The translations under genes were made by a program, and so were the position numbers. Shown here piece by piece: positions 42 through 18,561 of a stretch of DNA of 18,561 bases. Within the stretch, counting starts at the first letter, position 1, and the number at the start of each line of letters is the position of its first letter. This stretch comes from Elusimicrobiota bacterium (GTDB lineage: Bacteria > Elusimicrobiota > Elusimicrobia > Elusimicrobiales > UBA9959): assembly GCA_037137395.1 (NCBI GenBank), contig JBAXKK010000051.1, forward strand, positions 1 to 18,561. Reading direction: 5' to 3'. The notes beneath the pieces are model-generated. The model made no database searches. It saw nothing but the letters and a program-made list of their open reading frames with translations, and was not told the DNA's origin.

Positions 42-881
42 TTCTACACTTCCTACTGCCCTCGCCGCAAACTCCAGCGGCGTTAAATCATCCAGCGAGC
101 TGTGCGGGCGGAACCCGTTATATTCGTTCCGCCACTCCTCGATAATCTCCCTTGCTTCCTCAAGGCTCATGAACCAGTGCTCATTCAGGCATTCGTTCCG
201 GAACTTGCCGTTGAAGCTTTCGATATACGCGTTCTGCGACGGTTTCCCTGGATCAATGAAGTCCAGCTTAACATGATTCTTAAACGCCCACTCATCGACA
301 GCCTTTGAAATGAACTCAGGGCCGTTATCCATCCGTATAGCGGCCGGCAGCCCGCGCAAATCCTTAAGCCGGTCCAACACTTCTACAACACCGACACCGC
401 GGATAGATTTGTCGACTTTTATGGCAAGACATTCCCGGGTAAAGTCATCAACGATGTTGAGGCACTTTAACTTCCGGCAGTTATAGAGAGCATCATGGAC
501 AAAGTCCATAGACCAACACTGATCCGCCGCCGTCGGAGCCGGGAGCGGGATTCTAGGTGCCGCCCTGAACTTCTTACGCGATCGCCGCCTCAGGCTCAGC
601 TTTAAAACCTTATAGTAAATCCGTTCAGTCCGCTTATGGTTCTTAACCAGCTTTTCCCGCTTCACTACGCTGTGAATCATGGCCGCGCCCCAGCGCTTCT
701 TTTTTCTGGCGAGTTCAATGATGCGCGCCGTTAGGGCGGTGTCGTCACGCCCTATCGCCTTATAGTAAAGCGTTGATCGCCAGAGGCAGATCAACCCGGA
801 GGCCCTTCTGTAGCTGAGTCCGAAGGTATCCCTGATAACAACCAGAGCGGCCTTTTTAGCCTTGGACCCTACCAGTTTTTT
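18..881 (-). CDS. IS3-family transposase OrfB (integrase-core DDE domain), made as an OrfAB frameshift fusion
   Basis: WSMDF...MDNGPEF...QNAYIESFNG gives a DD(35)E triad. The frame is open upstream of the ORF-track start (794) to the A6 run and reads KKLVGSKAKKAALVVIRDTFGLSYRRASGLICLWRST, typical of IS407-type OrfB. Confidence 0.93.
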   Translation of the reverse strand, partial: KKLVGSKAKKAALVVIRDTFGLSYRRASGLICLWRSTLYYKAIGRDDTALTARIIELARKKKRWGAAMIHSVVKREKLVKNHKRTERIYYKVLKLSLRRRSRKKFRAAPRIPLPAPTAADQCWSMDFVHDALYNCRKLKCLNIVDDFTRECLAIKVDKSIRGVGVVEVLDRLKDLRGLPAAIRMDNGPEFISKAVDEWAFKNHVKLDFIDPGKPSQNAYIESFNGKFRNECLNEHWFMSLEEAREIIEEWRNEYNGFRPHSSLDDLTPLEFAARAVGSVEFNNSAVV

Positions 882-1135
882 GAGTTTATCAGCTTAAGCG
901 CCTGGTTATCCAGGGTCAGATCGGCCACGATCTGTTTAAGCCGCCTGTTTTCGTCCTCAAGGCACCGGAGTCGCCTGACGTCGCTGACCTCCATACCGGC
1001 GTATTTCTGCCGCCAGTTATAGAACGTATTGGTACTTACGTTATATTTGCGGCACAGGTCTTCTGTCTTGATGCCGGTTTGCGCCTCTTTAAGGATGCCG
1101 ACTATCTGTTCTTCTGTGAACCTCTTTTTTGCCAT
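869..1135 (-). CDS. IS3-family transposase OrfA (HTH + coiled coil)
   Basis: MAKKRFTEEQIVGILKE...LCRKYNVSTNTFYNWRQKY...LEDENRRLKQIVADLTLD...KNW. GGAGG RBS upstream on the minus strand (1145-1149). Confidence 0.95.
   Translation of the reverse strand: MAKKRFTEEQIVGILKEAQTGIKTEDLCRKYNVSTNTFYNWRQKYAGMEVSDVRRLRCLEDENRRLKQIVADLTLDNQALKLINSKNW
875..881 (-). other. -1 programmed ribosomal frameshift site A AAA AAC
   Basis: Minus strand reads TCA AAA AAC TGG TAG in OrfA and AAA AAA CTG GTA in the OrfB frame. This is the established IS3-family mechanism. Confidence 0.85.
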
Positions 1136-2010: not shown

Positions 2011-2102
2011 AAGTAGCGCCCGGTAGTTTAAAGATGTAAAATTTAAACATGGGGTCGGCATTTTTCTGATAATCCAGCCCTTTAATCGCTTTGCTTATAA
2101 AT

Positions 2103-2900
2103 ATGATGCACGACTCTGAGCTCTATACTGACAACAACAAAGAAAAACTTACCTCTTTTGGCATCAAGCTGGACCAGCGCGGGGCACACTCCAGTCGCAC
2201 TTTGATGTTGACGGAAATTGCATCTTTGCTTCATGCCACTCCCAGAAATTCCACTGCGGAAGTATATCGGGACGCGATAGTTGCCCAAAATGTTCTCAAT
2301 AAGGCCACTACGGCCACCCGAATAGAGTCTTACGAGCGGCTTAGTGTTCTATATGGCCTTTCCACGTGTCCGCCAATACATTCAATTTACAGAAGCCTTG
2401 TCGAAATAGATCCGGCTTCCCTGCCACTTCTATCTTTTTTGTTAGCTTGGGGCCGCGACTCGCAACTCAGGGGAACAACCGAGGCGATATCTTCCGCAGC
2501 CCCTGGTACTTTAGTGAAATCCCAAATGCTGGAAGTAGCTTTAAAAGCTTTCGCGCAGAATCAGTACGGAGATGGCACAATTTCCAGAATCGCATCAAAT
2601 GCGATTTCTTCCTGGACACAAGCAGGCTACCTCACCGGCAGGGTAAAGAAAACCCGCCAAGCAATAAAGCCCACCCCTGCCGTAATCACCTTGGCTTTAA
2701 TTATCAGCGATGTTGCAGGCTTCCACGGGGCACAGGCCTTTACTTCGCCCTGGTGCCGTCTATTAGACTTGACGGCTTCCACCGCCAGCACGTTAGCTTC
2801 TCAGGCACATGGGATGGGCTTTATAACACTTAGATCTTCCGGGGCCGTGGTTGAACTTAGTTTCCCAAAATTCTCTGAAACAATGCAAAACACCTTATGA
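2103..2900 (+). CDS. BREX-associated protein in the BrxA position (BrxA-like, putative DNA-binding)
   Basis: First gene of the operon, ATGA-coupled to brxB. It contains the segment AIVAQNVLNKATTATRIESYERL, reminiscent of BrxA-type proteins, and ends in a helical/winged-helix-like region. The start is uncertain (TTG 2091, ATG 2103 or ATG 2106). Confidence 0.65.
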   Translation: MMHDSELYTDNNKEKLTSFGIKLDQRGAHSSRTLMLTEIASLLHATPRNSTAEVYRDAIVAQNVLNKATTATRIESYERLSVLYGLSTCPPIHSIYRSLVEIDPASLPLLSFLLAWGRDSQLRGTTEAISSAAPGTLVKSQMLEVALKAFAQNQYGDGTISRIASNAISSWTQAGYLTGRVKKTRQAIKPTPAVITLALIISDVAGFHGAQAFTSPWCRLLDLTASTASTLASQAHGMGFITLRSSGAVVELSFPKFSETMQNTL

Positions 2901-3451
2901 GCCAAATAGACAATTTGCTATCGAACTATAAAGATTTTATTGCCCTTCCCTGGGCGGATAAAATCCATGGGGCTCAAAAAGTATTATTTGCCGTCTATCC
3001 GCCCACGGAAGAACGCAGACTTCGCACTAAAATGCCCGAGTTCGAGATTGTCACACGCGATACCAAACGGGAATGGCACCTTGTCGATCTAACGAATTGT
3101 CCAGCAGAGTGGCTTGGCGAACACGAATACAAGGACGGCTACTTCGCAGACCCTTCAGCTGTTGAGAACATTAACCACGAGTTAAAAGAAAAACTTGTTT
3201 CGCTCTTAACAAAGGAATGCGACTCGCATAATGGCCCGGACACTGTGCTTGCTATTCTTGGTATCGGCAGCCTATTCGGGTTTATCCATATCTCCAGTGT
3301 TCTCACAGAATTAGATAATAAGATCAAAGGCCGCTTATTGGTGTTTTTTCCCGGAGTCTATGAACAGAACCGTTATAGGTTCCTGGACGCACGGGACGGA
3401 TTTAATTATATGGCAATGCCCATCACCTGTGAAGAAAGGATGAAAATATGA
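2897..3451 (+). CDS. brxB: BREX protein BrxB (DUF1788)
   Basis: 184 aa with VYPPTEE, GIGSLFGF, LLVFFPGVY and a C-terminal NYMA, typical of DUF1788. Located directly before brxC. Confidence 0.88.
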   Translation: MSQIDNLLSNYKDFIALPWADKIHGAQKVLFAVYPPTEERRLRTKMPEFEIVTRDTKREWHLVDLTNCPAEWLGEHEYKDGYFADPSAVENINHELKEKLVSLLTKECDSHNGPDTVLAILGIGSLFGFIHISSVLTELDNKIKGRLLVFFPGVYEQNRYRFLDARDGFNYMAMPITCEERMKI

Positions 3452-6400
3452 AGAATAAAGAAGTTTACCTCAAAAATCCTGACTCTTTTGAATTGGTAAA
3501 CAATGGTGTTTCCAAGCTGGCGGAGATGGATGGGGATGCCCAGCAGTTGAAAACGCTAAGGTTTGAACTTGAAAATTTTGTCTGTTCCGGAGAATACGCC
3601 CGCGGACTGGAGCGCATATTGAATGCCTACCTCGGCGGAATGAATAAGCTAGAGCAACAGGCAGTCTGGGTCAGCGGCTTTTTTGGTAGTGGCAAATCTC
3701 ACCTTGTTAAAATGCTCCGGTACATGTGGGTAGACTACAAATTCCCCGACGGTGCCTCGGCAAGTTCCCTTGCTCATATAACTCCAGACATAAAAGCAGC
3801 TTTGATCGAGCTTTCAAACCGCGCAAAGAAATATGGGGAATTAAGAGCTGTCGGTGGGACCTTAGGCGCTGGCAACACTGATGATGTAAGATTGGCATTC
3901 CTGCAACTTATTTTCAAGGCAGAGGGGCTTCCGCAGAGCCTCGCAGCCGCCAAGTTTGTTCTTTGGCTTAAACAGAACAGTTATCTCGCCCCTGTCATTG
4001 CCCATATAAAGAAAAACAAAAAGAACCCAGAAAGTGAGCTTCCACACTTTGCTGTATCTACTGTAATTGCAGAAGCTTTATTAAATCTTGATCCAAAATT
4101 CAACACAATTTCAAACACCCAGCAAGCACTTCGGCATCAATTCGTAAAAGAATCACCCACTATCGATGAGGTTATGCAGTTGATCCACCAGATATTCGCA
4201 GTAAATGATGTAATGCCCTGCACGCTGATAGTGATCGATGAAATCCAGCAATTTATCGGCGGCGAGGTTAAACGCGCCATGGACGTGCAGGAATTGGTGG
4301 AGAGGTGTTCTCAAAAGTTCAACAGCCGCCTGCTCATAGTCGGCACCGGGCAATCCGCTCTTACAGGAACCCCCAATCTGCAAAGGTTGCAGGCCAGGTT
4401 CACAGTTAAAGTGCCGCTGAATGACACCGACGTGGAGAATGTAATCAGGCAGACAGTGCTTGCAAAAAACCAAACCCACACGAAAGATATTGAAAAAGTT
4501 ATACAAGCTAATCAGGGCGAGATAAGCAGACACCTGCAGAATACCCGCATAGCCCCTACCGCCGACGACGATAAATATTATGTTCCGGACTATCCCTTAC
4601 TGCCGGCCCGCCGCAGGTTTTGGGAAAGACTTCTGCGGAACGTGGACTCCACTGGCACCACCGCGCAGCTTAGAACGCAATTAAGGATAGTCTATGACGC
4701 GGTAAAGCACACCGCCAACATGGAACTTGGTCAGGTTGTGCCCGGCGATTATATCTACGACCAGATTGCAGTGGACTTGTTAAATTCTGGAATACTTTTA
4801 AAAGAATACCACGAAACCATAATGCGCCAGCGTGAGGAGAAGGACGGCGATCTTAAATCCCGTCTATGCGCCCTGGTATTTCTCATCCATAAATTACCCC
4901 GCCAAGCGGGGGCCGATGATGCTGTTCGTGCTACGGTAGAAACATTGGCAGACCTTCTTGTTCAAGACCTTTCCAAAGACGGCTCGACACTGCGCTCGAA
5001 ATTGCCTGGGCTCCTTGGAGACCTAGTTAAACAAGGCAAGTTGATGTTGCTGGAGGGCAACGAATACCACCTGCAAACCCGTGAGAGTGCGGCCTGGAAC
5101 AATGATTTCTCCCGCAACCGCACTAGGATACTGAATGATGAGTCACATCTAAGTTCCGAACGCGAAGAGTGTTTCCGCACCTCCATGGAAAGCGTTTTTC
5201 GGGGCGTTAGGCTTCAGCAGGGCTTAAGCCTGGAGCCGCGCGATATTGAAACATCTTTTTCCAACACCCAGCCTTCACAGCCTGCCGACAAAGTCCTTTT
5301 CTGGATACGCCACGGTTGGGCCGAAGACCGGAAAACAGTATTGGACGACGCCAGGAGGGCCGGGCAAAGCAACCCAATGCTCTACGTGTTCCTGCCTCGT
5401 GAGCGCCATGATGAATTTAAACAGGCAATAGCCACTATGCTAGCCGCTAAAGACACTATTGAACACCATGGCGTACCATCAACGGCTGAAGCTATTCAGG
5501 CCAAAAACGCCATACAAACGCATTATGAAACTGCAAAGCAAAAGGTTCAAGAATGTGTATCTGAAATCCTTGAGAAAGCGGAAGTCCTTTTAGGCGGGGG
5601 GAGTAACGCCAATGGTGTGCAACTCATTGACAAATTAAAGGACGCTGGCAATAATGCTGTTATTCGCATGTACCCTAAGTTTTCTGACGCAGATAACCCT
5701 GGCTGGGCTAATGTGCATAAAAAGGCCAAGGTTGGCGATAATGGGGCACTAGGCGCCATTAATTACGCCGGGAACCCGACCGACCATCCTGTTTGCAAAC
5801 AAATTTACGCTTCTATTGGCTCCGGCAAAAAAGGCAAAGAGGTAAGAGAGCTGTTTACCACCACCCCTTATGGCTGGCAGCAGGATGCTATTGATGCAGC
5901 GCTGACGGTTTTAACCTTAAGTGGCAATCTTAAAGCCGTAAGTAATGGCCAGCCGATGAAGGTGGCTGATTTGGATCACACTAAAATATCCAATATTGTT
6001 TTTTCAGTGGCCGTCCCGGCCCTCAGCACGACTCAAAAGGTAGAGCTACGTGCCCTTTTTCAGAAATTGGACGTAAAGACAAATTCAGGTAATGAGTCCA
6101 GTTCTGCTGGAACTTTTCTCGAAAGGTTAAGAGAGTTGGCAGATACTTCCGGCGGCTCAGCCCCGCGGCCGGAGACCCCCGACGCAGCAATTATCGGAGA
6201 GCTCCAGTCAAAGAGCGACAATGAGCAGCTTTTATGCATCCATCAGCAAAAGGCTGACATTGAGAAGAAGATAAAAGACTGGAAAGATTTGGCTCATAAG
6301 ATAAGCCTTCGTTTCCCAAAATGGGAGAAACTAAATCTTCTCTGCAATCTTGCTGCGGACTTGCAAGACTCGAAAGATGTTTGCACGGCACTTGGGGCTA

Positions 6401-6885
6401 TTGAATCAGGGCGTTCTTTGCTTGTAGATCCCGACCCCATCCCGCCGCTCATGCAAAAGCTTGTAAATGCTGCGCGCCATGCCATAAACGAGGTGCATAC
6501 AAAGCTTGGCACTGAGCATACGGAAGAGACCTCCCGCCTTGAAAAGAATGAAATATGGAAGAAGCTTTCTCAGCCGCAGAGGGACCAGATATTTGCGGCC
6601 AATGGTTTGGCGGCGCCAACTGCGCTAAAAGTATCAACCGAGGACGAGGTTATAGCGACCCTCCAATCCGCCTCGCTTGAGAACCGGCGCACTTTAATTC
6701 AGGCCTTGCCTCAGAAATTCCGTTCTGCCTTGGAAGAAGCATCAAAACTACTTGAGCCTAAAGCCTCCACTGTTAAACTTCCCTTTGCCACGGTACGCAA
6801 TGCTGAAGAGCTGGATAAATGGATAGGGGATGTGAAAAAGACTGTTAACGACAAACTTAAGGACGGGCCAGTAATATTAGGCTAA
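3448..6885 (+). CDS. brxC: BREX P-loop ATPase BrxC
   Basis: 1145 aa with Walker A (WVSGFFGSGKSH), Walker B (LIVIDE), GTGQ, YPLLP and PYGW motifs, in BREX gene order. Confidence 0.93.
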   Translation: MKNKEVYLKNPDSFELVNNGVSKLAEMDGDAQQLKTLRFELENFVCSGEYARGLERILNAYLGGMNKLEQQAVWVSGFFGSGKSHLVKMLRYMWVDYKFPDGASASSLAHITPDIKAALIELSNRAKKYGELRAVGGTLGAGNTDDVRLAFLQLIFKAEGLPQSLAAAKFVLWLKQNSYLAPVIAHIKKNKKNPESELPHFAVSTVIAEALLNLDPKFNTISNTQQALRHQFVKESPTIDEVMQLIHQIFAVNDVMPCTLIVIDEIQQFIGGEVKRAMDVQELVERCSQKFNSRLLIVGTGQSALTGTPNLQRLQARFTVKVPLNDTDVENVIRQTVLAKNQTHTKDIEKVIQANQGEISRHLQNTRIAPTADDDKYYVPDYPLLPARRRFWERLLRNVDSTGTTAQLRTQLRIVYDAVKHTANMELGQVVPGDYIYDQIAVDLLNSGILLKEYHETIMRQREEKDGDLKSRLCALVFLIHKLPRQAGADDAVRATVETLADLLVQDLSKDGSTLRSKLPGLLGDLVKQGKLMLLEGNEYHLQTRESAAWNNDFSRNRTRILNDESHLSSEREECFRTSMESVFRGVRLQQGLSLEPRDIETSFSNTQPSQPADKVLFWIRHGWAEDRKTVLDDARRAGQSNPMLYVFLPRERHDEFKQAIATMLAAKDTIEHHGVPSTAEAIQAKNAIQTHYETAKQKVQECVSEILEKAEVLLGGGSNANGVQLIDKLKDAGNNAVIRMYPKFSDADNPGWANVHKKAKVGDNGALGAINYAGNPTDHPVCKQIYASIGSGKKGKEVRELFTTTPYGWQQDAIDAALTVLTLSGNLKAVSNGQPMKVADLDHTKISNIVFSVAVPALSTTQKVELRALFQKLDVKTNSGNESSSAGTFLERLRELADTSGGSAPRPETPDAAIIGELQSKSDNEQLLCIHQQKADIEKKIKDWKDLAHKISLRFPKWEKLNLLCNLAADLQDSKDVCTALGAIESGRSLLVDPDPIPPLMQKLVNAARHAINEVHTKLGTEHTEETSRLEKNEIWKKLSQPQRDQIFAANGLAAPTALKVSTEDEVIATLQSASLENRRTLIQALPQKFRSALEEASKLLEPKASTVKLPFATVRNAEELDKWIGDVKKTVNDKLKDGPVILG

Positions 6886-6888
6886 ACC

Positions 6889-9800
6889 ATGTTTTTATCT
6901 AAAGAACAGCGCAACCAACTCTCACGCATAGTCCTTGAGGCCCGCGACGTTGCGGAGCAGGCCGCTACCAAGGCGCTTTGTTCTATTGGCGTACATGAGC
7001 CGGATGCTTACGGCCATTTATCCGAGGAGCAGCGCATTTTAAGGCGCGCGCTCCGTGCCCAGGCCCGCCAATTAGGCGACACTGAGGACGTTTCCAAACG
7101 CGGCCGTTACCATATAAAGAAGCTTTCAGAGAAATGCGCCTATGACCATTGGCATAGGATGCTTTTTGCCCGCATCCTTGCCGAGAATAATCTGCTTATA
7201 CACCCTGACAATGGCGCCAATGTGACCATGGAGGAGTGCCGGGAGCTGGCCGACGAGGGACTGGGGAAGAACGCCTGGGACGTTGCGCAACGCTTTGCCG
7301 CGCAGATATTACCGCAGGTGTTCCGCCCAGAGGACCCCGCAGGGAAAATAGCTTTCGCCCCGGAAGATCAAAAGAATCTAGAAGACCTTGTGCAATCTTT
7401 GCCGGCTGACACATTCAAAGCCGACGATACTTTGGGCTGGATGTACCAATTTTGGCAGGCAAAGAAAAAAGACCAGGTAAACGACACCGGCACAAAAATT
7501 GGGGCGGATGAACTACCCGCAGTAACTCAGCTTTTCACCGAAGACTATATGGTGCTTTTTCTTCTGCATAATAGTCTCGGCGCCTGGTGGCTTGGGAAAT
7601 TTGATTTAGAGAAAAAGCCTAGGCCGTCCAAAGAAGAAATACAAAAACGCTTCCCATATCTCCGCCTGAAGGAAGACGGGGTCCCAGCGGCTGGATGCTT
7701 TGAGGGTTGGCCCAGACACGCAAAAGAAATCAAGTTTCTAGACCCCTGCATGGGCAGCGGACACTTCCTCGTAGCAGCACTGCCAATACTTGTCCGCTTC
7801 CGGATGGAAGAAGAAGGGTTTTCCGAAGCAGATGCCTGCTCCGCAGTGCTTGGCGAAAATATTTTTGGGCTTGAATTAGATCCACGTTGCACGCAGATAG
7901 GGGCCTTTGCCGTAGCTGTCAAAGCCTGGAAGCTAGGAGGCTACCGCACGTTGCCGCAGCTTAACATTGCGTGTTCCGGCCTTGGTCTTAATGCTGCAAA
8001 AGAATCCTGGCTCAAATTGGCTGAGGGGGAAAACAAATACAGGTTTGGGATGGGCCAACTTTATGACCTTTTCCAGAAAGCCCCTATTTTGGGCAGTCTT
8101 ATTGATCCTAAAAATATTGAGTTGGGCTTTGCTGTTTTTCAAGAATTGCAACCGATATTAGACAAAGCTCTAAAGCGAGAAGAAGCGCGGCATGATGAAA
8201 ATGCAACAGAAATGGCAGTTGTAGCTAAAGGCATTGCGCAAGCAGCAGCAATACTTGCGGGCAAATACACATTAGTAGCCACAAATGTTCCATATTTAGG
8301 GCGTAGTAATCAGAATGAAGAATTAAGAGATTTTTCCACAAAATACTATCCGGACTCTAAAGCTGATCTTGCAACTTGCTTTATTGATAGAGCACTAGAG
8401 TTTTGTGGTGATAACTCTAGTATCGCCCTCGTTACGCCTCAGAACTGGCTTTTCCTTGGTGCCTACGCCAAGTTGCGTGTACGCCTTCTCAATTCAGAAT
8501 CCTGGAATTTCTTGGCAAAATTAGGAGCACACGCTTTTGAAACTATTGGGGGAGAAGTTGTGAATGTCTCATTGTTTTCAGTGACTAAGAATAACCCCAA
8601 CGATACACATGATTTTTTCTGCTTAGATGTTTCTGATTGTAAAACGGTCGAAGAAAAGAAAAAAACACTTTTAGAAAAGAATCTTTTCATAGACAGGCAG
8701 GCGCAGCAATTAGGCAATCCTGACGCAAGAATTGTATGTGAGCGTATTAAAACTGATGAACTTTTAAGCATGCATGCTAATAGCCTATGGGGCCTGAGAA
8801 CTGCTGATAATTTACAATTCCTGCGGAAATTTTGGGAACTTCCAGTCATTCATAGCGATTGGATATTTTTTCAAGGTTCAGTCGATTTATCTAGACATTA
8901 TGGTGGCAGAGAAGATGTTCTCCTTTGGGAAAATGGGGTTGGACGATTAAATCATTACTCGGAAATTGGTCTTGCAAGTTTGCAAGGCCAAGGGGTATGG
9001 GGAAAACGGGGAATTGCCGTAAGCCTTATGGGCAAGTTGCCAGCAACGATTTACACCGGGGAGGCTTTTGCCAATTCCGTTGCAGTAGTATGGCCAAAAA
9101 CGCCTGATGAATTATTGGCCTTTTGGGCATTTTGTTCATCAGACGAGTACTCAAAATTAGTTAGGCAGATTGACAGCAAGATGCTCGTAACGAATCAAAC
9201 ATTACTTAAAGTTGGATTTAATGCGGGATATTGGAAAAAGATTGCCTCGGAAAAGTATCCCAATGGTCTTCCTAAGCCACACTCAAGTGACCCGACCCAA
9301 TGGCTTTTTAATGGCCATCCCAAAGACTCATATAGCCCGCTACACGTCGCTGTTGCCAGACTTTTAGGTTACAAATGGCCGCGCCAGACAGGCTCAGAGT
9401 TCCTCGACTGCATAAAACTAAATTCTGATAGTTTGGAACAATATGCAGATGACGATGGAATCGTCTGCATTTCAGCTATTAAGGGAGAGCCACCGGCAGA
9501 AGAACGTCTTCGCGCATTATTAGCTGCTGCTTATGGTAAAGATTGGGGACCTGAGAAACAGGCAGAATTATTAGCCCAAGTAGATTATGCTGAAAGCACG
9601 CTCGAAGATTGGTTACGCAACGGTTTTTTTGCACAGCACTGCAAATTATTTATTCAAAGGCCTTTTATCTGGCATGTATGGGATGGACGTAAAGATGGTT
9701 TTAGCGCTTTAGTTCATTATCATCGGTTGGATAAACCCACTTTAGAGAAACTTGCATTCACGTATCTAGGTGATTGGATTTCCCGTCAGAAAGCCGCAGT

Positions 9801-10149
9801 AGCGGCCAATCAAGAAGGTAGTGACGCGCGCCTGCAAGCGGCAAAAGAGCTACAAGACAAGCTCCGCCAAATAATAGATGGTGAAAGCCCTTATGACATT
9901 TTTGTTCGGTGGAAACCCCTTGCGCAGCAGCCTAACGGTTGGGATCCGGACTTAAATGATGGTGTTCGTATGAATATTCGACCTTTTGTAGCCGCCGCGG
10001 TTCTACGCAAAGATCCTAAAATAAATTGGAGACTGGACCGCGGCACTGATGCCAAAACTGCCCCGTGGGTCCATAAATTCAATGGCGAGCGCATAAATGA
10101 CTATCATTTAACCCTCGCTGAAAAGAAAAAAGCCGCTGTCCCTAAATAG
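6889..10149 (+). CDS. pglX: BREX adenine DNA methyltransferase PglX
   Basis: 1086 aa with TQLFTEDYMV, SAM-binding motif I (LDPCMGSGHF), catalytic motif IV (TNVPY) and C-terminal RPFIWHVWDG / PDLNDGVRMNI. Lies between brxC and pglZ. Confidence 0.92.
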   Translation: MFLSKEQRNQLSRIVLEARDVAEQAATKALCSIGVHEPDAYGHLSEEQRILRRALRAQARQLGDTEDVSKRGRYHIKKLSEKCAYDHWHRMLFARILAENNLLIHPDNGANVTMEECRELADEGLGKNAWDVAQRFAAQILPQVFRPEDPAGKIAFAPEDQKNLEDLVQSLPADTFKADDTLGWMYQFWQAKKKDQVNDTGTKIGADELPAVTQLFTEDYMVLFLLHNSLGAWWLGKFDLEKKPRPSKEEIQKRFPYLRLKEDGVPAAGCFEGWPRHAKEIKFLDPCMGSGHFLVAALPILVRFRMEEEGFSEADACSAVLGENIFGLELDPRCTQIGAFAVAVKAWKLGGYRTLPQLNIACSGLGLNAAKESWLKLAEGENKYRFGMGQLYDLFQKAPILGSLIDPKNIELGFAVFQELQPILDKALKREEARHDENATEMAVVAKGIAQAAAILAGKYTLVATNVPYLGRSNQNEELRDFSTKYYPDSKADLATCFIDRALEFCGDNSSIALVTPQNWLFLGAYAKLRVRLLNSESWNFLAKLGAHAFETIGGEVVNVSLFSVTKNNPNDTHDFFCLDVSDCKTVEEKKKTLLEKNLFIDRQAQQLGNPDARIVCERIKTDELLSMHANSLWGLRTADNLQFLRKFWELPVIHSDWIFFQGSVDLSRHYGGREDVLLWENGVGRLNHYSEIGLASLQGQGVWGKRGIAVSLMGKLPATIYTGEAFANSVAVVWPKTPDELLAFWAFCSSDEYSKLVRQIDSKMLVTNQTLLKVGFNAGYWKKIASEKYPNGLPKPHSSDPTQWLFNGHPKDSYSPLHVAVARLLGYKWPRQTGSEFLDCIKLNSDSLEQYADDDGIVCISAIKGEPPAEERLRALLAAAYGKDWGPEKQAELLAQVDYAESTLEDWLRNGFFAQHCKLFIQRPFIWHVWDGRKDGFSALVHYHRLDKPTLEKLAFTYLGDWISRQKAAVAANQEGSDARLQAAKELQDKLRQIIDGESPYDIFVRWKPLAQQPNGWDPDLNDGVRMNIRPFVAAAVLRKDPKINWRLDRGTDAKTAPWVHKFNGERINDYHLTLAEKKKAAVPK

Positions 10150-10160
10150 CACCGGATGAT

Positions 10161-12506
10161 ATGGCAAAAAAGAACACAACTATCCTTGATAAACTTTCCG
10201 AAAGCCTGAAAGACATAGCTATTGCTACGCCGGGGGACCAGGAAAAGCCCTGCGCTGTTTTGTGGACTGATCCGGACAAACAATGGGAATCCTCTTTGGA
10301 TTGCCTAAAAAAAAGCATCCCCGAACTTTTTGTTCTAGGAAAAGACTACTCGCCTGAAAATAAAACCGGCCCTGCAATATGGCTTAGATGTATCGAAGGC
10401 CGCACTATCGATCCTAAACTAGAGAAAAACAAAACTCCGATTTTCTACTTGCCGGGGTATAGCAAGTTTGATTTACAGGATTTAAAGAACTGCCCAGCTG
10501 AACTTCAACCCATAGCGGAAATGCAATTCCGCGGCGCAATATGGCTGCACCCTAACGGCAAAGACTGGACCCCGATGGGCTTTCTTGTTTCGGACCATGG
10601 CGGTTTGGGCCTGGACGTTGCAAAAGACGAGGCTACAGCTATTGCCTTAAAAAACGCACTTGCTGAAGTTTTAAGTGAACCGGTTTCAGATTTACATGGG
10701 AAACGGCTTGATGCAGATTACTTCAATGGCTTGCTTGCCCCTGACCTTATAAAACAAATCCTGGCCTGGCTGGATTCGCCGCAAAAAACGAAGGCGGCAA
10801 AAGATGCCCGTGCATGGCAGGCATTCTGTGAGCAGTGCAAAAAAGAATATGGCTTTCATCCGGATAAGGACGGGGAACTCCACGCGGCCGAGCTGCTTGG
10901 TAAGCGTGAAGATGGTTGGGTAGAGGTCTGGAAAAGATTTTGCGATGCCCCTGCAAAATATCCTGGGATAGAAGACCTTTTAGATAAAGCATCCCCGGCG
11001 AAGAAGGGGATTATGCTTGAACTCCCCGAGGGCTCCTGGCCGAGCGCGAATAAAACCGATGAGAAGCACTTACAAGATGGGTTGAAAGCTCTTAAGAATT
11101 TGCCTCATGATAAAGCGGCAGAAGAGATATTAGCTTTAGAGAAAACGAATGCTAAGAGGCGCGATTGGGTTTGGGCTCACTTGGGGAAGGCGCCTCTTGC
11201 CCAGGCGTTAAGAAGCCTCTGCATACTAGCTGAAGCCGCCAGAAAACCGCTCTCTGCACCCTCGGCGGCTGAAATAGCTGAACTTTATACTGAGTCGGGC
11301 TGGGAAGTGGATTCCGCAGCCATTACAGCTCTTTCTGCCGTTTCTGCACCGGAAGACGTGAAAGCGGTATGTATTGCTGTGCGCTCTGTTTATTTAAACT
11401 GGCTTGAGGAGTCTGCCCGCAATCTACAGCGCTTTGCGAACAGTGCCCCTGCAAGTGTAACGCCCGAAGATACGCCGATAGAATGTAAAGATGGGCGCGT
11501 GATCTTGTTTGCCGACGGCCTCCGCATGGACGTGGCTCGGCGTTTAGAGAAAAGGTTGAAAGAGGAAGGCTTAACCATCCAGTTTGATTGGGACTGGTCG
11601 CCTTTCCCAAGCATTACCGCTACTGCTAAATATTTTGTTTCTCCTGTAAAAGACAAAGTTAAAGCGGCTGCAACCTCCGAAGATTTCGGGCTGTTGGCGG
11701 CGGATAGCAATAAGCCGGTAACCAAAGACAGGTTTGTCGGGCTCATGAATGATGCCGGAGTCGGCCCAATTTATAACGCCGGGAATTCTATCTCCGAGAA
11801 GACAGGCTGGTTTGAAACTGGCACTATTGATGAACATGGCCATAACGACGGCTGGAAACTGAGCAAGTCCATTGAAGAAGAGGTTTCCGCAATAGTCGCA
11901 CACATCAAAACCCTGCTGTCAAAAGGCTGGAAAGAAGTTTTAATTGTTACCGACCATGGCTGGCTTATGATGCCTGGCGGCTTGCCTAAGATTTCCCTGC
12001 CGGCTTTCCTTACGGAAAACCGCTGGGGCCGCTGCGCTGCCATTAAGGACGGGGCGAATGTGGAAATGCCTACCCTGCCGTGGCATTGGGACAACCGGGT
12101 AAGGGTTGCCTACCCTCCGGGCGTAGGTTGTTTTAAAGCCGGGCTAGAGTATGCCCACGGCGGCGTATCGCCCCAGGAAATGGTTGTGCCGCGGATTTTA
12201 ATTACGGCCGGGGCCGGAACCGCAGCAGAATCACGGATTGCTTCATTGAAATGGGTTGGCTTACGCGGGAAAATGACTGTTGAAGGTATGTCCGCTGGAC
12301 TAACTTTAGACATACGCCAACGCCCTGCCGATCCATCAACCAGTTTGATAGAGGGGGGAACTGCAAAACCCATCGGGGCGGACGGCACCGTTTCCATTTT
12401 TATCAGCGACGATAGAAATAACGGGATTGCGGCTATTGCTGTGCTTATTTCATCCAACGGCGCCGTTATTCATTCATTGCCGACAGTAATAGGAGAAACC
12501 AAATGA
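10161..12506 (+). CDS. pglZ: BREX PglZ (alkaline-phosphatase-superfamily phosphodiesterase), 'type B'-like
   Basis: 781 aa with an N-terminal GPAIWLRC and metal-binding motifs ADGLRMD, PSITATA, IDEHGH, VTDHG and HGGVSPQE. Confidence 0.93.
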   Translation: MAKKNTTILDKLSESLKDIAIATPGDQEKPCAVLWTDPDKQWESSLDCLKKSIPELFVLGKDYSPENKTGPAIWLRCIEGRTIDPKLEKNKTPIFYLPGYSKFDLQDLKNCPAELQPIAEMQFRGAIWLHPNGKDWTPMGFLVSDHGGLGLDVAKDEATAIALKNALAEVLSEPVSDLHGKRLDADYFNGLLAPDLIKQILAWLDSPQKTKAAKDARAWQAFCEQCKKEYGFHPDKDGELHAAELLGKREDGWVEVWKRFCDAPAKYPGIEDLLDKASPAKKGIMLELPEGSWPSANKTDEKHLQDGLKALKNLPHDKAAEEILALEKTNAKRRDWVWAHLGKAPLAQALRSLCILAEAARKPLSAPSAAEIAELYTESGWEVDSAAITALSAVSAPEDVKAVCIAVRSVYLNWLEESARNLQRFANSAPASVTPEDTPIECKDGRVILFADGLRMDVARRLEKRLKEEGLTIQFDWDWSPFPSITATAKYFVSPVKDKVKAAATSEDFGLLAADSNKPVTKDRFVGLMNDAGVGPIYNAGNSISEKTGWFETGTIDEHGHNDGWKLSKSIEEEVSAIVAHIKTLLSKGWKEVLIVTDHGWLMMPGGLPKISLPAFLTENRWGRCAAIKDGANVEMPTLPWHWDNRVRVAYPPGVGCFKAGLEYAHGGVSPQEMVVPRILITAGAGTAAESRIASLKWVGLRGKMTVEGMSAGLTLDIRQRPADPSTSLIEGGTAKPIGADGTVSIFISDDRNNGIAAIAVLISSNGAVIHSLPTVIGETK

Positions 12507-14554
12507 GTTTCCAGCTAGACGACCTTGATAATATTTCCGCCAAAGCCTTTGAAGGCGTGGTTGTACGCAAAGACCTGATACGGAAATTTAAGGGCCAATA
12601 TCCTGTGCCCACCTATGTGGCTGAATTTTTACTTGGCCGCTACTGCGCGTCCACCGACGACGCGGAAATACAGGAAGGCTTAAAGATAGTTGAAAGGCAG
12701 CTTGGTGAGAAAACAGCGCGAGCCGGAGAGCAGGAACTATTTAAAGCTAGGGCAAAGGAAAAGGGTTCCGTGCGGCTAATAGACATTATTACCGCCAGGC
12801 TGGATACCGAAACTGATTCTTTTGTGGCCCAGCTCCCCAGCCTTCAGCTAAAGGAAGTCCGCATTGCCGCCGCGCTCGTCCACGCTAATGAGCGCATGCT
12901 TACCGGCGGTTTTTACGCCGAAGTAGAGCTTTCGTATGACCCGGAAATAGCCCATGAGCAGGATGGCCGTGCCTTCGGCATCACTGATCTGCGCGAGATA
13001 CAGATCTCCAAGCGCGACGTACTTACTGGCTTATTCCGTGGCCGTGAGATGTTCAGCCTGGACGAATGGAAGAAATTTTTAATACGCAGCACCGGCATGG
13101 AGCCGACTAAACTTTCAGAAAGGGCAATAGATGCAATGCTGCTTAGGATGGTTCCGTTTGTAGAGCCCAACTACAACATGGTTGAGCTGGGCCCCCGCGG
13201 CACCGGGAAGAGCCACTTATACCAGCAGGTTTCGCCTTATTCACACCTTGTGTCCGGAGGTAAAGCGACTGTCGCCCGCATGTTTGTAAACAACTCAAAC
13301 GGCCAGCGCGGCCTTGTTTGCCAGTACGATGTTGTCTGCTTTGACGAAATTGCCGGTGTTTCCTTCGACCAGAAAGATGGCGTAAACATCATGAAGGGCT
13401 ACATGGAGTCCGGCGAATTCAGCCGCGGTAAAGAAAGTATACGCGGTTTCGGCAGTATAGTCATGGTGGGTAATTTTGAAGTGGATGTTCAACACCAGCA
13501 GCGCATCGGGCACTTGTTCGGGCCAATGCCGGACGATATGCGCGATGATACAGCTTTCATGGACCGCATACATTCGTATATGCCGGGCTGGGATATTCCT
13601 AAAGTAAGCCGGGATATCTTAACTGATCATTTCGGATTGGTAAGCGATTTCCTTTCAGAATGCTGGAACCAACTCAGGAAGCAGCCGCGCTACGCCGCTT
13701 TGCAGGGCCGTGTTCACTTCGGGCCAGCCTTAAGCGGCAGAGACACAACCGCAGTGCAAAAGACTGTCAGTGGCCTTTTAAAGCTTATTTATCCTAATCC
13801 GGAAACCCCTATCCCCGACGAGGCGCTAGAATGGGCGGTAAGGCTGGCGCTTGAATGCCGCAGGCGTGTAAAAGAACAGCAGAAGCGGATTGGTTCCGCT
13901 GAATTTAGGAATACACATTTCAGCTACCAGCTAGGCGCTGAAGGTGTAGAAAAGTTTGTCTCCACCCCGGAGTTATGCAGTGAGGACAGCATAGGCACCG
14001 ACCCGCTGCCTCCCGGCCAGGTTTGGGCCATATCGCCCGGCGGCCAGGATGAGAACGGCGGTTTATATCGTATAGACGTTAACGAGGGCCCCGGTTCCGG
14101 TGTAAAAGTATTAAACCAGCCCACCCCGCCGCCATTCCGTGAAAGTGTGCGCTGTGCGGAGCAGAATCTCTATTCCAGGGCCAAATTGTTGGTTGGCGAC
14201 AGGGACCCGCGGGCACATGAGTTCTCAATACAGCTTAGGGCCTTTGACGCATCAAAAAGCGGCGCAGGCGTAGGCATGGGCGTTTTAATGGCCCTTTCCT
14301 CAGGTCTCTTGCAGAAAAGCCTCCGCGGCGGGATGATAATAGTTGGCAGTTTGAACCTGGGCGGTTCTATTGACCCGGTATACAATGCCGTCAATCTCAT
14401 AGAAATTGCCATAGAGAAAGGTGCAACAAGCGTCCTTATGCCTGTAAGCGCAAGAAAGCAGCTCAATGACTTGCCTGACGACCTGGCAACAAAAGTGACA
14501 GTGCTTTATTATTCCGACGCTAAGGATGCACTCTTAAAGGCATTAGGGGAATAG
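12503..14554 (+). CDS. brxL: BREX AAA+/Lon-like protein BrxL
   Basis: 683 aa with VPTYVAEFLLGRYC, Walker A (ELGPRGTGKSH), Walker B (VVCFDE), MKGYMESGEFSRG and DRIH motifs, plus a Lon-like C-terminal domain. ATGA-coupled to pglZ. Confidence 0.95.
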   Translation: MSFQLDDLDNISAKAFEGVVVRKDLIRKFKGQYPVPTYVAEFLLGRYCASTDDAEIQEGLKIVERQLGEKTARAGEQELFKARAKEKGSVRLIDIITARLDTETDSFVAQLPSLQLKEVRIAAALVHANERMLTGGFYAEVELSYDPEIAHEQDGRAFGITDLREIQISKRDVLTGLFRGREMFSLDEWKKFLIRSTGMEPTKLSERAIDAMLLRMVPFVEPNYNMVELGPRGTGKSHLYQQVSPYSHLVSGGKATVARMFVNNSNGQRGLVCQYDVVCFDEIAGVSFDQKDGVNIMKGYMESGEFSRGKESIRGFGSIVMVGNFEVDVQHQQRIGHLFGPMPDDMRDDTAFMDRIHSYMPGWDIPKVSRDILTDHFGLVSDFLSECWNQLRKQPRYAALQGRVHFGPALSGRDTTAVQKTVSGLLKLIYPNPETPIPDEALEWAVRLALECRRRVKEQQKRIGSAEFRNTHFSYQLGAEGVEKFVSTPELCSEDSIGTDPLPPGQVWAISPGGQDENGGLYRIDVNEGPGSGVKVLNQPTPPPFRESVRCAEQNLYSRAKLLVGDRDPRAHEFSIQLRAFDASKSGAGVGMGVLMALSSGLLQKSLRGGMIIVGSLNLGGSIDPVYNAVNLIEIAIEKGATSVLMPVSARKQLNDLPDDLATKVTVLYYSDAKDALLKALGE

Positions 14555-14556
14555 CC

Positions 14557-15498
14557 ATGCCTGCAATGACAAAAGACGAGTTTGATGCGTACCTGAAAAG
14601 CGGGAAAACCACACCTGTTTGGACCAAAACAGGAAGTTGGAGTCAGTTCAAGGTACATGCGAAAAAAATAGAGGAGGCTACTGCGTATCTTCAGGAATGT
14701 CAGGGCACAAGTCCATCGGGTCAGCGCAAATGGACGCCGCTTTACCGTGGGCACAGAAATTCCTCATGGAAGGTTCAAAGCACATTTGACCGGACCGATA
14801 ATAAGTTAACGCTGTCAGAGTATCACGATTTGGTCCTGAAAGCCCAGCAGGAATATAAGCAGCTACTTAGAGCTGCAACCTTAGACGCCAAAGAAATAGA
14901 CAATTATCCCTACGACAATTCCAGTGCGCTTAAAATTTCAAAAATACTTGCAGACTCCAATGAAATCAACATTCTCCCAGAAGAGCTTAGATTTTGGGTG
15001 TTTCTGCGTCATTATGGTTTCCCGTCTCCACTCTTAGATTGGACCAAAGACTATCAAGTTGCAGCCTTTTTCGCGTTTCAGAACAAATCCGACGAAGAAT
15101 TTATTTCGATTCATACGATGATCCCGGCACTATGTGGCTCTACGGGTGCCAACCTAATCACTATCAACGACTCCTCAATGCAGACTGATGCAGCAGCGAG
15201 CTTAAAGCCGCTTATCAGACGCCATGCCGAACAGAAATCTGTCTATACCCTGTTTTACAAAGAACGCTCAGATGGCCGCGGCAGCAAGCCACAAAGTTTT
15301 GAAAAACACGAGGATATGTTTAAAGAAAATTCCGCCCATGGTGGTTCGTGGGGCCTATACTTCAAATTCAACATACTGGCCTCAGAAAGGGAACGTGTAC
15401 TAAAAGAACTCGACCAGATAGGCATCAATTCGGCAAAGATTTTAGCCAATACCGATGCCCGGCTAGAAACAATCCAAAATCGATTATTCTTATTCTGA
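14557..15498 (+). CDS. FRG-domain protein
   Basis: LYRGH...STFDR and LRHYGFPSPLLDWTKDYQVAAFFAF match the FRG signature (FRG...QHYGxPTxLLDWT...ALFFA). Starts 2 nt after the brxL stop. Confidence 0.88.
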   Translation: MPAMTKDEFDAYLKSGKTTPVWTKTGSWSQFKVHAKKIEEATAYLQECQGTSPSGQRKWTPLYRGHRNSSWKVQSTFDRTDNKLTLSEYHDLVLKAQQEYKQLLRAATLDAKEIDNYPYDNSSALKISKILADSNEINILPEELRFWVFLRHYGFPSPLLDWTKDYQVAAFFAFQNKSDEEFISIHTMIPALCGSTGANLITINDSSMQTDAAASLKPLIRRHAEQKSVYTLFYKERSDGRGSKPQSFEKHEDMFKENSAHGGSWGLYFKFNILASERERVLKELDQIGINSAKILANTDARLETIQNRLFLF

Positions 15499-15522: not shown

Positions 15523-16029
15523 ATGGCACTATTTAAAATAGATGGGGCGACCGTCAAAAAGATTATCTCAAAGGATTTAGACCTAGAAAAGAGTCTTCAG
15601 AAGCTTTTCGAACAGAACTTGGACGAGATTTTAAACATAGTATTTATTGCGCACGAACATCCCACCAGTTTCGGTGGGAGAATAGATACCCTCGGCATAG
15701 ACCGGAACGGTTCCCCGTGTATTATTGAATACAAGAAAAGCCAGAACGACAACGTCATCAACCAGGGCCTTTCTTATCTTAAATGGCTGTTAGATCATAA
15801 AGATGCTTTTGGAGTTTTATGCCAAGTCCGGAAAGTTAATATTGAAATAGATTGGGATTCGCCACGTGTCATCTGCATTGCCGAAAGTTACAGCAAGTTT
15901 GACCTCGACACTGCCGACATACTGCCAATAAATATTGAATTATTACGGTACAGGCTTTACGATGACAATATTCTTTTTCTTGACCCTGAAAACTATCAGA
16001 AAGTAAATGTCCTGTCCAGTTCAATCTGA
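15523..16029 (+). pseudogene. NucS/EndoMS-like PD-(D/E)xK endonuclease-domain gene, 3'-truncated by IS insertion at 16008
   Basis: Motif residues E22, RID55, IIE69YK71 and Q81xxxY85. RBS AAGGGG upstream. The first 161 codons are native, and the last residues and TGA come from the IS end. It resembles the N-terminal half of roughly 300-aa DUF91/DUF5655-type proteins. Confidence 0.75.
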
Positions 16030-17064
16030 GATATTTTCTTGCTTAGATCTGTTGACAATTCTAGCATCTTCCGGTACTTCTTCCCACTCCTCCAATAACG
16101 TCCACTTCAATAACAGCTGTCTTACCGCTTTCCGGTGGATACGGCGGTTTTCTGCCCAGCCGTTCCAGCCCAACTGACATTTTATGTCCTCTAGGTTTAG
16201 TGCTAGCCACTCCCGGTCCATTTCTTCAGTCGCACCGTCGCCATTTAAATAAACCTCGGCTGATTTACGATAACCGAGGACCGCACGCGGTTTTACATAG
16301 TTCAATATCAGCATCCCTTCGTCTACTTCCCGCCGCAACTCCTCCCGGCTTATCTCCCGGCCCTCCAGCGTCAGTAACCAGTTCTCGATCTCCTGGTTAT
16401 CACGCTCGGTCCGCCCGTTTACCCAGGGCGCATGGGGCGGGATCGGGTACGGGATTATCTTGTGCTTTGCCAGAAAGTCCTGGAACATCTGGCTCTTAAA
16501 CGCGCCGCCATTGTCAAACTTCCAGACCAACGGCGCCCGTCCCATGGATCCCACTATTCCTTCCGCGTGCTTTACCAACTCTTCGGCACTCTCCGAATCC
16601 ACTATATCCCACCCCAGTTTATATATCGACATCTCGTCGAGCGTTTTAAGAAGCTTTCCGCCGGGGATCGCAAGAAAATCCGAGGACCACATTACATCCC
16701 GGTAATTGATATGCGTCCGGCCATTATGCGGGCGTTCGGTCTTCTTCGGCCTCGGCCCGCGCGCCTCACGGACTATCTTCGCCACACTATTATGGCCGAT
16801 GCCGATCACATGCGCGATAGAACGCACATCCCAGGTCGACCGGTATCGCCGGTCCAGCTCTATAACGCGCTGTTTTACTGCCTCGGATATTTTCATCACT
16901 TTCTTCCTGCCCTCGCTACACTTCCCGCTTACCCACCGCCAATGAGTGCCGGTACTTATTCCCCAGCATTCAGCAAAAACCCCGGCACGGGTCCCAGCGG
17001 CTTTCTCTTTTAGCCATTCGGTAAAGTATAGCCCGCGGGTTTCCTTGGACGCATATCTTTTTTT
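16021..17064 (-). CDS. Second DDE transposase/integrase domain (OrfB-like), probably fused to 17010..17432 by a -1 frameshift
   Basis: WSSDF...KFDNGGAF...NGRTERDN gives DD(35)E. The frame is open 55 codons upstream of the ORF-track start (16899) up to a TAA at 17065-17067, and that extension encodes HTH-like AGVFAECWGISTGTHWRWV. Confidence 0.8.
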   Translation of the reverse strand, partial: KKRYASKETRGLYFTEWLKEKAAGTRAGVFAECWGISTGTHWRWVSGKCSEGRKKVMKISEAVKQRVIELDRRYRSTWDVRSIAHVIGIGHNSVAKIVREARGPRPKKTERPHNGRTHINYRDVMWSSDFLAIPGGKLLKTLDEMSIYKLGWDIVDSESAEELVKHAEGIVGSMGRAPLVWKFDNGGAFKSQMFQDFLAKHKIIPYPIPPHAPWVNGRTERDNQEIENWLLTLEGREISREELRREVDEGMLILNYVKPRAVLGYRKSAEVYLNGDGATEEMDREWLALNLEDIKCQLGWNGWAENRRIHRKAVRQLLLKWTLLEEWEEVPEDARIVNRSKQENISD

Positions 17065-17432
17065 TTAACGTCTGCTTTGGGGAACGGCCCCCAGGCATTA
17101 CGCCGGATTATGCGCTGCGCAGTTTTCACCACCAGCTTCAGGTAATTGCGCTCCTTGCGTAACTTCGCCAGCTCCGTTCCCTGCCGATTCACTTGCGCCT
17201 CGAGCTTCTGTAACTGCTTCTCCGGGAACGGTGACAGGGTTTTCGGCCCTGGAAGCTTGGCTTCCAACACACGCAGCGCCGCCGCCTGCACCAGCTTCAT
17301 CCACCGGTAAAACAGCTCCCGCGATACTCCCGCCTGTTTGCACAGGTGTTCCACCGTCTGCTGGCGCCCTATCCCCAACAGGATCAGCTCCAGCCGCTCC
17401 TGCGGACTCGATAATTTTGTCTGCTTCCCCAT
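17010..17432 (-). CDS. OrfA-like HTH/coiled-coil transposase subunit
   Basis: TVEHLCKQAGVSRELFYRW HTH followed by a heptad-rich LQKLEAQVNRQGTELAKLRKERNYLK segment. Strong RBS GGAGGAG at 17440-17446. Confidence 0.85.
   Translation of the reverse strand: MGKQTKLSSPQERLELILLGIGRQQTVEHLCKQAGVSRELFYRWMKLVQAAALRVLEAKLPGPKTLSPFPEKQLQKLEAQVNRQGTELAKLRKERNYLKLVVKTAQRIIRRNAWGPFPKADVKKKDMRPRKPAGYTLPNG
17058..17066 (-). other. A9 slippery run, predicted -1 frameshift (or transcriptional slippage) site
   Basis: GTT AAA AAA AAA GAT in the 0 frame. The -1 frame reads TAA AAA AAA AGA TAT and stays open to 16021. Confidence 0.75.
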
Positions 17433-18525
17433 GTTCTTTCTCCTCCGTCGCCGTGACCGGCGCGCTTAGTGTTACTTCCGCGTCTTTGGCCACCAGCCGC
17501 AATTCTCTCCCGCCGATATTTCCTACAAGGTACGTCGGCGGCGTATAGCCTGCTGCTGTCGGCATGGCTTCCTGTACCGCCGCCGTATTCCCGGCGATTA
17601 TCTGCTTCACCTGACCAGCCACGCCGTAGTACCGGTCTGACGGGATCAGATTCCCTATTCCCTGGTGCGGACGCTTGAAGTTGTAATACTCTATGTATTC
17701 TCCTATTTTCGCCTCGGCTTCTTCAAACGTCGCCAGCGGCACCTTCGTCAGGCACTCCTGATACAGATTCCGCCAGAACGACTCGATCTTGCCGCACGTC
17801 TGCGGATGATACGGCCGACTACGGATATGCCGTATCCCCAGCTTCGTCAGCATCGTGGTGAATTTACTCTTACCGCGCCAGGTGTGATACTGCCGCCCGT
17901 TATCGCTCAGCACTTCCTTTGGCATTCCGCGCTTCTCAATAGCCGCCCGGAACACTTCCTGCACGTTGTCACCCTTCTGGAACCGGTATAGCCCCCAGCC
18001 CACCATGAACCGGCTGTTATCGTCCATGAATCCGATCAGGTATACCCGGTACTGCCCTTTCAGCATGAACGTCATAATGTCCGTCTGCCAGAGGTCATTG
18101 GGACAGGCGCGCTCGAAGCTTTTTACTTTTACCGGCTTGTTACGACGCTTCAGCTTTACTTCCTGCGGCTCCACGCCGTTGCGCCGCAGCAGTTTTCTTA
18201 CCGTTTCCCGTGCCATCTTCAGGAAACCGTGCCGGTACAATGTCCCCTGCACCTTTCCTATGCCGGCTTCTGGCTCCGCCTTTACTATTTCTTTGACTAT
18301 TTGCTCCGCCGCCGTTACTTTGGGACTGAACTGCCGCGTTCTGCCCCTGGGCCCGGCTTCCAGCCCGGCTATCCCGTTGCGCTCATAGGCACATGTCCAT
18401 TTTGAAACCATGGTCGGATGCACGCCGTACATCTTTCCCACATCGCTCAGGGAAAGGCCCTGCTGCCGGGTCTGGACTATTTCCAGCTTCCCGGCTACGC
18501 CTAATGTACCTTTTTTCGTTTTCAT
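17098..18525 (-). CDS. IS481-family transposase (HTH + integrase core)
   Basis: N-terminal HTH (VGKMYGVHPTMVSKW) and DDE motifs LWQTD, MDDNSRF, SDNGRQY, PQTCGKIESFW and YNFKRPHQGI. RBS AGGAGG at 18532-18537. Confidence 0.92.
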   Translation of the reverse strand: MKTKKGTLGVAGKLEIVQTRQQGLSLSDVGKMYGVHPTMVSKWTCAYERNGIAGLEAGPRGRTRQFSPKVTAAEQIVKEIVKAEPEAGIGKVQGTLYRHGFLKMARETVRKLLRRNGVEPQEVKLKRRNKPVKVKSFERACPNDLWQTDIMTFMLKGQYRVYLIGFMDDNSRFMVGWGLYRFQKGDNVQEVFRAAIEKRGMPKEVLSDNGRQYHTWRGKSKFTTMLTKLGIRHIRSRPYHPQTCGKIESFWRNLYQECLTKVPLATFEEAEAKIGEYIEYYNFKRPHQGIGNLIPSDRYYGVAGQVKQIIAGNTAAVQEAMPTAAGYTPPTYLVGNIGGRELRLVAKDAEVTLSAPVTATEEKEHGEADKIIESAGAAGADPVGDRAPADGGTPVQTGGSIAGAVLPVDEAGAGGGAACVGSQASRAENPVTVPGEAVTEARGASESAGNGAGEVTQGAQLPEAGGENCAAHNPA

Positions 18526-18561
18526 TCTTGTCCTCCTGACTTGATTTCCGGAGGCCAGAAT

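Follow-up and report, generated by a model that had tools for sequence, protein, structure and literature searches.

Insertion sequences (ISs) of the IS481 family normally carry a single transposase open reading frame (ORF) between their terminal inverted repeats (IRs), and OrfAB is the sole transposase of IS3 elements. DDE transposases and retroviral integrases are known as homomeric enzymes; the heteromeric transposase of Tn7 consists of a DDE enzyme and an unrelated nuclease. In the excerpts available of PMC11708052, an IS481 member with 49-bp IRs and a length of about 1.3 kb has a single transposase ORF, and the excerpts of 10.1101/2022.12.17.520857 state that IS481 terminal IRs begin 5'-TGT and that circle junctions were seen for ISKpn21 of the IS1202 group. 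For IS2, the available part of PMC3219604 describes a TA-3' left end, which serves only as the target in step I, and a 17-bp junction promoter. The window analyzed here (the whole 18,561-nucleotide stretch that was examined) is the complete contig JBAXKK010000051.1 from an Elusimicrobiota bacterium. It contains an IS in the minus orientation at 16008..18561 that encodes two DDE enzymes, TnpA and frame C, and a small gene, orfB, between them. The element likely moves by a two-enzyme mechanism that is undescribed in the literature searched. Its features are:

16008..16057, minus strand: right terminal inverted repeat (IRR), 50 bp, with ACA as the terminus on the element strand
16021..17064, minus strand: frame C, the second DDE transposase, 347 codons, with a Pfam rve match and the layout helix-turn-helix (HTH), HTH, integrase core and C-terminal helices
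17010..17432, minus strand: orfB, OrfA-like, 140 amino acids (aa), with a Pfam HTH_Tnp_1 match, a predicted coiled coil and its own GGAGG ribosome-binding site
17058..17067, minus strand: candidate slip site T-A9, linking B to C in the -1 frame
17098..17433, minus strand: dual-coding stretch in which the -1 frame of orfB encodes TnpA residues 365-475
17098..18525, minus strand: tnpA, IS481-like DDE transposase, 475 aa, with Pfam HTH and rve matches
18526..18561, minus strand: 5' leader with a GGAGG site, immediately inside the left IR
just past the contig end (705-754 in locus L033): left IR, 50 bp, starting with TAT and containing TATAAT at positions 13-18

A single mobile element with two DDE enzymes inside one IR pair is firmly supported. 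The window stops exactly 50 bp before the left tip of the element. The full length of 2,604 bp was taken from the near-identical locus L033, which has 100% identity to all three window proteins and continues beyond the point where the window's contig ends. A first-pass annotation, made from the letters of the window, had proposed looking for an inverted copy of the 16008 end and a matching target duplication at the other side. The inverted left end was recovered in L033 as an imperfect copy (37 of 51 aligned positions) with a tip of TAT rather than TGT; a matching duplication was not seen, and the flanks were rarely matched. The element has one pair of these imperfect IRs of about 50 bp, and such a pair is present in 67 of 112 loci with a spacing of 2,554-2,833 bp. 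Within the IRR are an outward-facing -35-like hexamer, TGGACA, at 5 bp from the tip and the inner box TCTGTTGACA, which also occurs in the left end.

The same annotation had placed a single TGT end at 16008 with no copy near 17430-17520, and had suggested one element rather than two nested ones. Both statements hold. On a weight matrix made from the ends of the family, the 16008 end scores 29.8 versus a best score of -2.3 anywhere in 16100-18561, and no internal end is present in 17380-17600 (best score -9.1). Among 36 representatives with both ends, no internal end was found either (best score at most 11.5), and terminal scores are 11.9-35.1 in 71 of 72. The reading as two nested ISs is rejected for this lack of an internal end; the fixed A-B-C order and the conservation of both triads under purifying selection, described below, also support one element. 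Near-identical copies in the public runs X2, X4 and X5 have other flanks at identical boundaries, therefore the unit has moved recently; run X1 was left out of the flank count since it may be the source sample. In X4 and X5 the other flanks start at the IRR boundary, give or take 1-2 shared bases. A second copy or left end was not found elsewhere in the 174 contigs of its own genome.

The three frames had been described as co-oriented and interlocked, in the order D-D-39-E, HTH gene and D-D-35-E, and they are present as such on the minus strand. The TnpA triad is D149 at 18081, D208 at 17904 and E248 at 17784; the triad of frame C, counted from 17064, is D129 at 16680, D184 at 16515 and E220 at 16407. 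Both enzymes look active, since their triads are intact and they are under purifying selection. The six residues are invariant in 72 of 72 clean full-length copies. Clean copies are those with full length and regular frames among the 91 loci with all three matches (3 others have indels); this filter leaves out visibly broken copies, so the triad counts cover the 72 clean ones only. The ratio of nonsynonymous to synonymous substitution rates in close pairs, which are not independent of each other, is 0.145 for the TnpA core, 0.113 for the C core and 0.175 for the first 115 codons of C, and the trees of TnpA and C have lengths of 10-12 substitutions per site. Among 139 distant C-like proteins, the triad positions are occupied by D in 121, D in 130 and E in 129, with gaps in 15, 9 and 10. 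The predicted model of C has an integrase-type core with a predicted local distance difference test score (pLDDT) of 84. The TnpA model is of low confidence (pLDDT 52.9) and its fold matches are weak, the top one being IS21 IstA (8b4h, E 4.6e-07).

The two enzymes are collinear and have a profile-to-profile identity of just 16%. With each chain scored singly, TnpA is a near miss on the IS481 profile NF033577 (205.4 bits with a cut-off of 224; C scores 60.4), and the IS3 profile NF033516 (cut-off 160) gives 159.7 bits for TnpA, 48.7 for C and 30.8 for B. Annotation pipelines call these ORFs ordinary IS3/IS481 or 'InsO' transposases, which are labels that would hide the family. A quick tree places TnpA and C in separate clades, with C as a sister to the single-ORF proteins L162-L166. 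The different lineages and the single-ORF sisters of C suggest that the element probably originated from a merger of an IS481-like and an IS3-like element. It might then still be an old nested or tandem pair with its inner ends lost, in which either enzyme can move the unit, leaving the second as a redundant passenger. This is very improbable, since there is no relic of an inner end, neither triad has decayed in the 72 clean copies, another phylum retains the layout at 25-40% identity and the dual-coding overlap is actively kept.

The first-pass annotation had suggested checking whether both transposases co-occur in this order across genomes. A+B+C is present in 71 of the 80 loci found with A (the best 80 of 138 confirmed) and in 20 of the 28 counted loci found with C (32 in total, with four distant ones at 24-31% set aside). 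The remaining A-found loci either reach a contig edge (7 loci, of which 5 stop 19-147 nt past B and 2 stop inside A) or are broken off by foreign DNA (2 loci). In L093 and L101, which have A without B-C, the left end of the family is followed by foreign DNA and there is no right end. The remaining C-found loci are contig-limited (4) or 5'-truncated without a left IR (4); among the C-found loci with A+B+C, L023 has an A that is cut by another IS and L024 begins within A. L093 and L101, together with L008, L012, L013, L028 and L214 (which lack an intact A), were considered as possible counter-examples; all of them are truncated, one-ended copies. L137 ends at a contig edge. Short right-end remnants with the rest of the element gone are present in L136/L169 and L125; L169 matches an intact copy over about 100 bp only.

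An intact TnpA lies upstream in every copy with both ends and clean frames. Homologues of the two transposases that occur independently had been named as evidence against a single unit. Distant relatives of C without A do exist (25-30% identity); an intact element with the two ends of this family and only one enzyme was not found among the loci examined. It is very probable that this is one element which needs both of its enzymes.

The named hosts are Elusimicrobiota, except for two bins, and within this phylum C was matched in 16 of 401 genomes (E<=1e-20). In the phylum of G439, the genome of the Myxococcales record L018, C matches occur in at least 8 of 350 further genomes, with six candidates scored per genome. 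Nine regions from this phylum comprise six A-B-C copies (two from one genome), one truncated copy and two ordinary single elements. The Myxococcota-group copies have 37-41% identity to the window in A and 23-28% in C, and their ends keep GTTGAC about 45-50 bp in. No relatives were found in viral contigs, and a tblastn search of C against 72,556 plasmid records gave no match. The TnpA and C gene trees agree in part (rho 0.50; 24 of 63 splits shared) and 14 of 33 strong A splits conflict, which indicates that the modules have been swapped and the pair has yet been kept. The mosaic copy L036 (identity to the window of 96% in A, 93% in B and 69% in C) points to recombination near the slip site.

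The single-ORF proteins L163-L166 form a clade of 304-315 codons with DDE-like residues that is a sister to C. They recur at a site that is followed downstream by a rhodanese-like gene and a gene for a large surface protein, in some cases with Rhs/YD-repeat sequence upstream, and have a short conserved 5' motif; an inverted right end was looked for at these loci and none was found. These genes possibly encode a domesticated transposase. The other single-ORF relative (L162:4068-5146) starts directly after the ATG of the left end of a two-transposase element, either inserted or fused.

Frame C is likely made as a B-C fusion of about 469 aa through a -1 slip at an A8/9 run. The slip site at 17067-17058 was not part of the first-pass annotation, nor was the TAT left tip of this copy. 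In all 72 clean copies, C lies in the -1 frame relative to B and a T followed by at least 8 A is located at the B/C junction; the Myxococcota-group copies have A8-A10 runs at the same junction. A conserved HTH occupies the 56 codons ahead of the annotated C start and natural in-frame B-C fusions make up 20 of 149 distant proteins; therefore, the fusion is the probable product. The sequence signature fits either ribosomal frameshifting or transcriptional slippage. In the available part of PMC5009743, A_AAA_AAC shifts less than A_AAA_AAG in Escherichia coli, transcription slips at runs of 9 A, and slippage is used by many ISs. An independent start of C at residue 57 was also considered; ATG or GTG is found there in only 24 of 44 representatives, so such a start is not universal. 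An A-C fusion by read-through is unlikely because 37 of 72 copies have two or more stops on the way, the TnpA stop being 6-84 nt before the slip-site TAA.

The tail of TnpA that overlaps orfB is under selection. The tail is rich in Gly, Ala and Glu, acidic and predicted to be disordered, with a length of 96-134 aa and a net charge of -5 to -20, and the orfB product is basic (mean net charge +11 as far as the slip site). The TnpA frame is open through orfB, and in 71 of 72 copies its end lies 0-33 nt short of the slip site. In 44 representatives, the first 105 codons of B contain 1 stop in the TnpA frame versus 114 expected from synonymous recoding of B, and in 14 clusters at 70% there is 1 versus 43 expected. 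A third-position T before AA, AG or GA occurs at 1 of 830 sites versus 170 of 2,051 elsewhere in B, and G occupies 69% of the four-fold sites versus 51-54%. The +1 frame over orfB is unconstrained. In four distant copies, the TnpA frame is likewise open across B and terminates in a Trp/acidic motif; the distant copies L215 and L219 have no overlap, yet encode an acidic tail of their own. With its 110 dual-coding codons, the tail clearly exemplifies an overlapping frame under selection in bacteria.

The two ends of the element differ at their tips. The left tips are TAT in 60 of 72 and TGT in 12 of 72, and the right tips are TGT; the end patterns demanded T[AG]T and ACA, so these counts lean accordingly. 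Some distant copies have a left tip of TGC. TAnAAT is present at positions 13-18 in 61 of 72 distinct left ends, and 64 of 66 right ends have TGGACA, TAGACA or TTGACA at the matching place, 5 bp from the tip; no -10 consensus was found at positions 13-18 of the right ends. The -35-like hexamer and TAnAAT are 17 bp apart if the ends are joined without a spacer, and joined ends in a circle would form a promoter.

No target duplication was found in 56 of 57 loci with both flanks, in a search that covered 2-12 bp exact, 4-60 bp with mismatches and all-against-all cross-matching of flanks. The sole 4-bp match (1 of 57 loci) joins two different genes, the left-right cross-matches are at or below chance, and no duplication was seen in three distant copies. 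Blunt insertion without duplication is plausible from these flanks. However, the identifiable flanks are always from different genes, which fits mis-joined repeats or frequent adjacent deletion and leaves the lack of duplication tentative. The searches made found no empty site with both flanks adjacent. The right flank from X4 and the left flank from L033 would form one short open frame with zero bases duplicated (joined by eye; 1 in 3 by chance), for which no homologue was found. The flanks of L046 match points about 1.9 kb apart in one IS21-family element (L009:606-3005), which is a result of either adjacent deletion or a mis-join. Upstream in this IS21-family element is an additional small ORF that contains Cys motifs.

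These flanks raise the question of whether only one of the enzymes is a working transposase, with a TnsA-like task left to the second DDE enzyme (cutting of the non-transferred strand or trimming of the target), giving blunt insertions and adjacent deletions. The absence of duplications, the chance-level cross-matches and the copy that sits between two points of an IS21 element would all fit. Flanks from different genes are also explained by mis-joined assemblies, however, and both proteins retain full HTH arrays and transposase-type cores, so this division is improbable.

The preferred reading, which has about an even chance of being correct, is a mixed complex that works via a circular intermediate, with each enzyme acting on one of the two unlike ends. 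TnpA and B-C would then cooperate as a heteromeric transposase. A and B would each be translated from a separate ribosome-binding site, and in a minority of cases B would be extended into C at the A8/9 run, which may make B-C limiting. Both enzymes may use their HTH domains to bind the inner IR boxes that the ends share, and thereby pair the ends. The right end (CA-3') would be the first donor and would be joined to the left tip through a spacer of 0-1 bp, placing TGGACA or TAGACA 17-18 bp upstream of TAnAAT to create a strong junction promoter, as in IS2. The junction could then be opened with one type of active site per end and the element inserted with little or no stagger. In the weakest step of this scheme, the acidic tail of TnpA would act as a tether or as a DNA-mimic switch for the basic B/HTH domains.

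A step-specific split, in which formation of the circle (copy-out) and its integration (paste-in) are the tasks of different enzymes that each act as a homomer, would account for the same conservation data and requires no heterodimer. The two steps have been proposed to involve intrinsically different transpososomes (available part of PMC3219604, on IS2), the ends bear the junction-promoter signature, and expression differs between the two enzymes, being direct for one and dependent on the slip site for the other. On the other hand, a single enzyme does both steps in ISCth4 (available part of PMC7780238), and the same promoter would drive both enzymes. A split by step is a doubtful but serious alternative.

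Several observations weigh against a mixed complex with end-specific enzymes. End asymmetry has a one-enzyme precedent in IS2 and ISCth4 (available parts of PMC3219604 and PMC7780238), the inner IR boxes are identical at both ends and make no demand for two end-specific binders, and the 12 TGT left tips are the same as the right end. Single-ORF relatives of C without A (L162-L166, 25-30% identity) have a DDE triad that looks intact. No A-C single-chain fusion was found, which is a weak test. No structure or Shine-Dalgarno-type stimulator adjoins the slip site (mean z +0.17; 2 of 44 below -1.5), and no circle junction was found in the contigs of eight runs, where rare forms are dropped. The wider proposal of a widespread undescribed IS class, with an obligate two-DDE hetero-transpososome, blunt insertion and tuning by an alternative-frame acidic tail, falls somewhat short of an even chance. 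If insertion is blunt, the element would provide a scarless DDE integrase system, which is of interest for engineering.

The element interrupts a gene next to its right end:

15523..16007, plus strand: interrupted target gene for a NucS-like nuclease, cut after about 161 of about 305 codons, with a weak NCBIfam NucS match

An intact NucS-like homologue in L188 has 308 codons from stop to stop. The element is at the 3' end of a BREX-1-type island (2091-14554, plus strand) which includes BrxB-like (2897-3451), BrxC, PglX, PglZ type B (above the cut-off) and BrxL genes and an unassigned 269-aa ORF in the BrxA position; an FRG-domain gene (14557-15498) is next. An ordinary IS3-family element (18-1135, minus strand; orfA at 869-1135, orfB with 199.7 bits on NF033516) is at the other end of the contig, so the island lies between two ISs that are unrelated to each other. 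Elsewhere, a 76-bp stretch (L033:1-76), a putative repeat or RNA, has 78-95% matches in many genomes of the family, with no tRNA called in it by ARAGORN, and the reading frame that abuts the right end in L194 may resemble Cas8c of a type I-C CRISPR system.

No description of such a two-DDE element was found in the literature, with subscription papers and ISfinder beyond the scope of the search, and an existing catalogue entry for the element is rather unlikely. The closest systems each share part of its organization. Like Tn7 with TnsA and TnsB, it has two catalytic proteins in one element with a likely division of labor. TnsA is a restriction-type nuclease rather than a DDE enzyme, and Tn7 requires the TnsC ATPase and target selectors. 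IS21 is likewise a two-gene IS, and its IstA gives the best fold match to the TnpA model, which is of low confidence; the second IS21 protein is an AAA+ ATPase and not a DDE enzyme. The present element differs from both in that it encodes no ATPase, and A, B and C alone fill it in the window. The IS1202 group generates long target duplications, and these were not found here when tested up to 60 bp. The group has a related DDE domain, and one subgroup has a TGT right end and a Ta/gT left end; a second transposase is not mentioned in the available part of the source (10.1101/2022.12.17.520857).

The likeness to IS481 includes the HTH and integrase core of TnpA, imperfect IRs of about 50 bp and the TGT right tip. 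The differences are a TnpA score below the NF033577 cut-off, a second DDE enzyme and an OrfA-like gene inside the IRs, a left tip that is mostly TAT and about twice the 1.3-kb length of the member in the available part of PMC11708052. The 4-bp duplication was not seen, though the identifiable flanks were unmatched. As in IS3 and IS2, an HTH-coiled-coil ORF is connected to a D-35-E core via a -1 shift on an A run (by its signature only here), and the TA-type left tip and predicted 17-bp junction promoter resemble those of IS2 (available part of PMC3219604). In contrast to IS3, C scores 48.7 bits on NF033516 and itself contains two additional HTHs, an entire second transposase is located upstream and overlaps orfB, and the slip site has no stimulatory structure. 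Judged by its sequence, the element may work like an IS2-type IS3 element to which a full IS481-like enzyme has been added, and it departs from the single-transposase feature of both families.

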